A stretch of 26,385 nt of DNA, taken from IMG/VR virus record IMGVR_UViG_2909309443_000009. One strand, written 5' to 3'. This stretch comes from a virus. Lineage: Duplodnaviria; Heunggongvirae; Uroviricota; Caudoviricetes. The position numbers and the translations under genes are program-made. The notes under the pieces are model-generated. The model had not been told where the DNA came from. It did not search any database and worked only from the letters and a program-made list of their open reading frames with translations. This document shows, piece by piece, positions 1,572-2,345 of the stretch (positions are counted from its first letter, which is position 1; every line of letters begins with the position of its first letter).

Positions 1572-2345
1572 ATGGATATTACTGAGTTTCCTTCTGGAGT
1601 AATTGAACACCTTGGCTGGTATGTATACCGATTGATTGATCCGAGGGACGGAAGCACCTTCTATGTAGGGAAAGGCAAAGGTAACCGCGTATTTGCCCAT
1701 ATGCGCGGTGAAGTGGCAGCGACTGATGATGACGAGTTACTGAGCAACAAGCTAAAGCAAATTAGAGAAATAAGGTTAGCAGGACTTGAGGTTATCCATG
1801 TCATCCATCGACACGGAATGACTGATGAAAAGACGGCGTACGAAGTCGAAGCAGCACTTATTGATGCCTACCCTGGGTTAACGAATATCATGAATGGTGC
1901 TGGCAGCAATGAATTCGGCGCCGCGCATGTCAAAGAGTTGATAGCAACATATCAACCCGAAACCATAACATTTCATCATAAAGCATTAATGATTTCCGTT
2001 AACAGAAGTGCAAAGGATTCAGAGCTTTATGATGCGGTTCGATTTAGCTGGCGCATTAATGTCTCTCGCGCCAGCCAAGCAGAAGTCATTCTTGCTACTG
2101 TAAGGGGAATCGTTCGAGGGGTTTTCATTGCTGATAAATGGCTCAAATCAACACGTGAAAATTTCCCTACGATGAAATACTGGGACGAGGATCCTGACTT
2201 TGAGGCAACACAAAGTTCTCGCTATGGTTTTGAAGGTCGAGAAGCCCCACCTGAAATAGCAAATCTTTATCTTGGAAAAAAAATACCAGATGAATTAAGA
2301 AAAAAAGGAGCTATGTCCCCGGTCCGTTACTCACCTAATTTTTGA
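1572..2345 (+). CDS. GIY-YIG nuclease-domain protein with uncharacterised C-terminal domain
   Basis: N-terminal GIY-YIG-like motif ([28 protein letters not shown]); ATG at 1572 preferred over the TTG at 1521 used by the ORF track. Confidence 0.55.

Follow-up and report, generated by a model that had tools for sequence, protein, structure and literature searches.

The window, as the whole stretch of 26,385 nucleotides analysed here is called, carries at 1572..2345 (plus strand) an ORF for a GIY-YIG-type protein, and the question it raises is what such a nuclease does at this place: whether it is a defence effector in its own right, a partner of the large NTPase encoded downstream, a homing endonuclease or a housekeeping enzyme. 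Judged from its sequence, the ORF is an intact copy of an already named defence nuclease, CMoRE (PD-T4-3), for which structures have been solved and a mechanism is known. With near certainty, the gene would work by this published mechanism and forms independent cargo, separate from the Avs2 system that follows it.

Identity and domain organisation of the protein

The gene begins with an ATG codon and encodes 257 amino acids, followed by a stop. A longer TTG-initiated variant of the ORF starts at 1521; the ATG start (MDI...) is common to RefSeq, the aligned enterobacterial homologues and the crystallised protein. The 257-residue product matches the PADLOC model for PD-T4-3 (PDLC04031) with an E-value of 2.4e-140 over profile positions 1-256 of 256, and PHROG 5356 with an E-value of 2e-143. 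All of its residues align with the PDB entries 9U75 and 9U8D from E. coli O157:H7 (E-value 3.7e-172) and 9U7U and 9U7Z from APEC O1 (E-value 1.1e-150), proteins of the same length and architecture. Identity to 9U75 extends to 253 of the 257 residues (98.4%), the substitutions from the window protein to 9U75 being T51A, E55D, Q169K and N197H; at position 197 the window copy has the family-invariant Asn and the crystallised O157:H7 protein has His. A protein identical to that of the window is present in RefSeq (WP_000355484.1). The O157:H7 protein assayed by Liu et al. is WP_000355475.1, annotated in O157:H7 strain TW14359. It was in this work (Liu et al., Nat Commun 2026; PMC12923530) that PD-T4-3 was characterised, crystallised and renamed CMoRE, and the attribution of PD-T4-3 to ECOR68 also comes from it. 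The name PD-T4-3 is absent from the main text of Vassallo (2022), in which 'a GIY-YIG nuclease' is the sole mention.

The earlier note had reported a GIY-YIG motif at the N-terminus, and this is borne out. The Pfam family LEM-3_GIY-YIG (PF22945) is found at residues 28-110 with 54.2 bits (cut-off 27; E-value 2.1e-14), while the general Pfam GIY-YIG model stays below its threshold (13.9 against 22.6 bits). From the sequence, the 'GIYxY-YIG' motif block occupies residues 17-43 (1620..1700, plus strand), and its residues Y17, Y19, Y31, R39 and H43 are invariant in an alignment of 36 homologues reaching down to 54% identity. The presence of an extra tyrosine in the GIY-YIG nuclease domain was described for CMoRE, and mutation of Y17, Y19 and Y31 in the O157:H7 enzyme showed these tyrosines to be required for activity (PMC12923530). 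R39 is presumably the catalytic Arg, the residue number being our own assignment as the text of PMC12923530 names the tyrosines only. The second half of the active site, located by alignment at 1848..1886 (plus strand), holds E93 and N105 together with V92 and L96, residues of the dimer interface; E93, N105 and L96 are invariant among the 36 homologues and V92 is nearly so. Following the general GIY-YIG pattern, E93 would be the catalytic Glu and N105 a metal ligand. The catalytic Arg and Glu, whose presence the earlier note had wished to see verified, are thus both in place. The V92S/L96S double mutant lost both oligomerisation and defence (PMC12923530).

Between helices 2 and 3 CMoRE possesses an inserted loop of 15 residues with four consecutive acidic residues, which covers the active site (PMC12923530). 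Alignment to 9U75 and 9U7U places the acids of this autoinhibitory lid at D52, D53, D54 and E55 (1725..1736, plus strand). The sequence is DDDD in the O157:H7 enzyme and DDDE in both the APEC O1 and the window protein, so that the E55 substitution falls in the autoinhibitory loop with the negative charge retained.

The remainder of the protein, from about residue 118 to 257 (1923..2342, plus strand), corresponds to the domain sensing 5hmC and 5ghmC. No match to its roughly 140 residues was found in Pfam when the domain was searched alone at E-values up to 10, nor did the window protein match NCBIfam. The earlier note was therefore right that this part carries no motif it could recognise, but the domain can no longer be called unknown, as crystallography has shown that it binds 5-hydroxymethylcytosine, and it binds 5ghmC too, in an enzyme that is a tetramer (PMC12923530). 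[quoted passage not shown] The window protein keeps every residue named in that paper, plus the family-invariant R39, E93 and N105; with the O157:H7 enzyme it shares the GIYxY-YIG motif, the acidic lid loop, the interface residues, the Y127 contact and also the gene neighbourhood. Nuclease domain and modified-base sensor are joined in one polypeptide, as in Type IV (modification-dependent) restriction enzymes.

A housekeeping GIY-YIG protein, namely UvrC or YhbQ/UPF0213, was rejected as an identity, for the gene is accessory (838 of 5426 complete E. coli genomes, about 15%), the profiles of these families are unmatched and NCBIfam gives no hit. The catalytic fold and the Arg/Glu pair are nevertheless shared with the N-terminal domain of UvrC and with the LEM-3/ANKLE1 family, UvrC being the closest structural neighbour of the CMoRE nuclease domain (PMC12923530). 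Unlike these proteins, CMoRE has the extra tyrosine (GIYxY), an acidic lid inserted as a loop of 15 residues and a domain that senses modification, and it is accessory and prophage-borne whereas UvrC is a housekeeping repair enzyme.

Published activity and predicted action of the window copy

In the presence of CMoRE, T2, T4 and T6 plate about five orders of magnitude less efficiently, and abortive infection is not involved (PMC12923530). In purified form the enzyme digests DNA with 5hmC or glucosyl-5hmC and leaves C and 5mC DNA intact; T4 with unmodified cytosine evades it (PMC12923530). Two modified sites are required for cleavage, which follows the pattern CN11/N9G and leaves 3′ overhangs of 2 nt; it depends on the modification, has little sequence requirement and leaves the host genome untouched (PMC12923530). 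When the four loop acids were changed to alanine, activity on T4 DNA increased, some ordinary DNA was cleaved and cells were poisoned (PMC12923530). The cloned O157:H7 orthologue defends alone and is active from its native promoter (PMC12923530), which agrees with the earlier note's view of a stand-alone defence effector, as PD-T4-3/CMoRE is a published single-gene system. Expressed from its native promoter, the APEC O1 homologue protected far less well (PMC12923530), so the strength of protection can differ between alleles and contexts. Independent studies found that the native chromosomal CMoRE copy of strain NILS69 restricts Tevenvirinae and that a Capnocytophaga homologue with 48% identity cuts modified T4 DNA and spares the unmodified DNA of T4-GT7.

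The same function is assigned to the window copy on account of its near-identity to the assayed enzyme and because it retains all residues with a demonstrated or inferred role. In the proposed mechanism, a T-even-type phage would inject DNA with 5-hydroxymethyl- or glucosyl-hydroxymethyl-cytosine, to which the C-terminal domain would bind; a head-to-tail dimer within the tetramer would read two modified sites separated by about 21 bp, and the N-terminal GIY-YIG domain, with Mg2+ or Mn2+ as its preferred metal, would make a double-strand cut between them (CN11/N9G, 2-nt 3′ overhangs). The four-acid loop over the active site would repel ordinary or 5mC DNA, whereby the host chromosome would be spared and a methyltransferase partner would be unnecessary. 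For the O157:H7 enzyme every one of these steps has been demonstrated by experiment. No methyltransferase gene adjoins CMoRE in the window, the flanking genes being an AraC-type regulator and a pin invertase. Defence of this kind would be direct and not abortive, and the ETEC-type strain carrying the locus is predicted to resist T-even phages with 5hmC or glucosyl-5hmC, a prediction which bears on the choice of therapeutic phages.

The gene could be intact and yet neither expressed nor functional in this strain, having been carried along as a passenger in what is left of a prophage. Its surroundings are indeed degraded: around it lie the tRNA fragment, pieces of tail-fibre genes, an IS66 element, a truncated integrase and an invertase copy whose C-terminal HTH is shortened. 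A simple scan of 1300-1571 for the sigma-70 consensus gave no promoter on the plus strand. Such a silent or inactive copy is nevertheless highly improbable given that the ORF is of full length with all residues shown or inferred to matter kept, that an identical protein represents a cluster of 1045 member sequences formed at 90% identity, and that the native chromosomal copy of NILS69 is active. Moreover, the intergenic region upstream (754..1571, plus strand), in which the native promoter presumably lies, shares 97% identity, along its full 818 bp, with the sequence preceding the TW14359 copy, a gene that acts from its native promoter. The last 200 bp or so before CMoRE are 93-95% conserved in two unrelated prophage contexts. 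A pseudogene was likewise rejected on the full-length ORF and its retained key residues.

Genomic setting and relation to Avs2

The gene was described in the earlier note as lying at an island edge between a tRNA-Ser fragment and an invertase; both neighbours were found, and the gene does sit among mobile-element remnants. By BLAST against annotated genomes, positions 1325-1394 (minus strand) are a 70-nt 3′ fragment of tRNA-Ser (100% identical to annotated tRNA-Ser genes), situated 177 bp upstream of the CMoRE start. This att remnant is not part of the CMoRE system. ARAGORN detected no complete tRNA over the whole window, and Rfam gave only a sub-threshold match to a plastid 3′UTR family at this tRNA-like stretch. 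In strain 2014EL-1346-6 the locus adjoins the pao operon and a LysR-family pseudogene, which indicates that the fragment was left behind by a past integration event and is not a working att site.

Just downstream of CMoRE lies a pin-type serine invertase gene (2439..2993, minus strand), one of two in the window, which together form an inverted repeat of 671 nt (95% complementary; arms at 2373-3043 and 4749-5419). The left copy has a shortened C-terminal HTH, with 184 aa as against 196 aa. The arms flank a segment of 1705 bp (3044-4748) with fragments of a tail-fibre C-terminal and an assembly gene, and in strain FORC_031 this segment is inverted between collinear flanks of 99.9% identity. In this decayed prophage remnant the segment therefore either continues to flip or underwent recombination not long ago.

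Further downstream, the ORF of 1484 aa at 5912..10366 (plus strand) is a full-length Avs2 (AVAST type 2) NTPase, with a PADLOC score of 1755, the RefSeq name 'avs2' and PADLOC Avs2 models covering essentially all of it. The earlier note had considered the nuclease a possible partner of this NTPase, and the two genes are in fact 3.6 kb apart on the same strand, an arrangement which recurs in 18 complete genomes as counted with a 9.1-kb query spanning both genes at a cover of at least 80%. Six of these 18 align to the window in one piece and 11 in two pieces (81% cover), like FORC_031. Yet adjacency concerns just 18 of the 838 genomes with CMoRE, and the Avs2 allele of the window occurs in 88 genomes of the complete E. 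coli set. Two pin genes and the invertible tail-fibre segment stand between CMoRE and Avs2, each of which is found alone beside tail-fibre genes in other prophages; the cloned O157:H7 orthologue protects without Avs2, and the Avs2 ORF is itself matched by its models over essentially its full length. A two-gene system with the nuclease as partner or effector of Avs2 is thus next to impossible.

Other strains show the two genes apart. The locus of TW14359 is syntenic with the window, having an AraC regulator, CMoRE, pinE and tail-fibre genes; to this arrangement the window adds, on the downstream side, another pin copy and Avs2. In ST131 strain 4993, CMoRE lies between a type II restriction-modification pair next to ssrA and a tail-fibre assembly gene of a lambdoid prophage, and on a circular element of 43.7 kb in strain CT01 it follows the same pair and is bordered on the opposite side by an acyltransferase gene, beyond which tail-fibre genes lie. 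Across the five loci compared, the neighbours opposite the tail-fibre side vary, and hence CMoRE has no conserved partner. In strain SCEC020001, Avs2 without CMoRE comes directly after a tail-fibre assembly gene at a prophage end. CMoRE and Avs2 are accordingly independent cargo beside tail-fibre genes, in several strains close to the end of a prophage, and are joined here in a composite, decayed prophage remnant. The locus can be seen as a small defence island made of prophage-end remnants and carrying two independent systems.

The restriction-modification pair mentioned above consists of a type II restriction endonuclease and a cytosine-C5 methyltransferase (3918-6594 of the strain 4993 locus L003; 3923-6599 of the CT01 locus L004). 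Its pairing with CMoRE is consistent with 5mC DNA not being cleaved. Where Avs2 directly follows a tail-fibre assembly gene in other strains, without CMoRE, the site is a lambdoid prophage end beside the pao operon, and one copy is on a plasmid-like record of 44.8 kb.

The rest of the window (10810-26385) is a patchwork of mobile-element remnants. On the minus strand are the truncated integrase (10810..11574), the IS66 element (about 11618-14232) and, in a lambdoid early region, a Dam-family methyltransferase (14883..15569), and on the plus strand are an S24/cI-type repressor of the same early region (18215..18907), a DUF2303 protein (20510..21334), two tyrosine integrases (22883..24046 and 24168..25271) and an ORF of 296 aa (25281..26171) with no match in Pfam.

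Homing annotations and a possible origin of the sensor domain

Lytic jumbo phages encode full-length homologues of CMoRE (38-45% identity, 97-99% coverage), examples being found in Serratia phage Moabite (NC_048792.1, 6406-7161), Pseudomonas phage OBP (158703-159449) and Klebsiella phage N1M2. Such homologues carry the labels 'homing nuclease' or 'GIY-YIG endonuclease', and the window protein itself has a weak match to a PHROG homing endonuclease family (E-value 0.002), so that a free-standing GIY-YIG homing endonuclease promoting its own spread, an option allowed for in the earlier note, had to be weighed. The phage annotations, however, are transfers of names and not the outcome of experiments. 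Pfam sees the GIY-YIG domain alone, with no DNA-binding module in the C-terminal part, which is instead a sensor of modified cytosine, and cutting needs the base modification and little sequence and spares the host genome (PMC12923530). The setting beside prophage tail-fibre genes is also unlike the intron or free-standing phage-gene setting of I-TevI-type enzymes. Homing is thus a very improbable role for the window gene, and modification-dependent defence is the reading retained. The jumbo-phage homologues too are more likely to be modification-dependent nucleases than homing enzymes, and they possibly act against competing hmC phages.

Among the closest known systems, the PvuRts1I/AbaSI family has the same substrate class as CMoRE (5hmC and glucosyl-5hmC, not 5mC). 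These enzymes cut about 11-13/9-10 nt from the modified C, prefer two symmetric sites and leave short 3′ overhangs. This geometry nearly matches the CN11/N9G of CMoRE. Also close are enzymes of the VcaM4I/TagI type and archaeal McrB-type enzymes, with EVE/YTH-like (PUA-like) readers.

The CMoRE sensor was published as a 'distinct fold' (PMC12923530). It may instead belong to the PUA-like superfamily (EVE/ASCH/YTH) as a strongly diverged member, a proposal that we put at slightly short of an even chance. Comparison with PUA-like proteins gave values of 5.5 for ASCH (5guq), 5.4 each for the THYN1 EVE domain bound to 5mC DNA (5j3e), YTHDC1 and the VcaM4I restriction enzyme (6yex), 5.2 for PH1033, 4.8 and 3.8 for the archaeal McrB N-terminal domains 6n0s and 6p0g, and 2.5 for the SRA domains of UHRF1 and AbaSI. 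A profile built from 21 C-terminal domains found CMoRE alone among all PDB sequences, and any PUA-like link is therefore structural only. It is this possible ancestry that makes up the research value left in the locus, as it would tie CMoRE to the wider group of modified-base readers and point to a flipped-base site. If the sensor is PUA-like, CMoRE would follow the common design of a PUA-like reader plus a swappable nuclease, and the flipped base might sit in the canonical barrel pocket among some of the invariant aromatic residues W160, W190, Y153 and Y233, in place of the edge site seen with free 5hm-dCTP.

A domain with the fold of the sensor is also present in a phage protein of 320 aa from Myoviridae sp. 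ct8ME27 (BFVD A0A8S5N646; Foldseek E-value 1.4e-9, 24% identity), which is named as a PD-(D/E)XK nuclease and suggests that the sensor has been shuffled between nuclease types.
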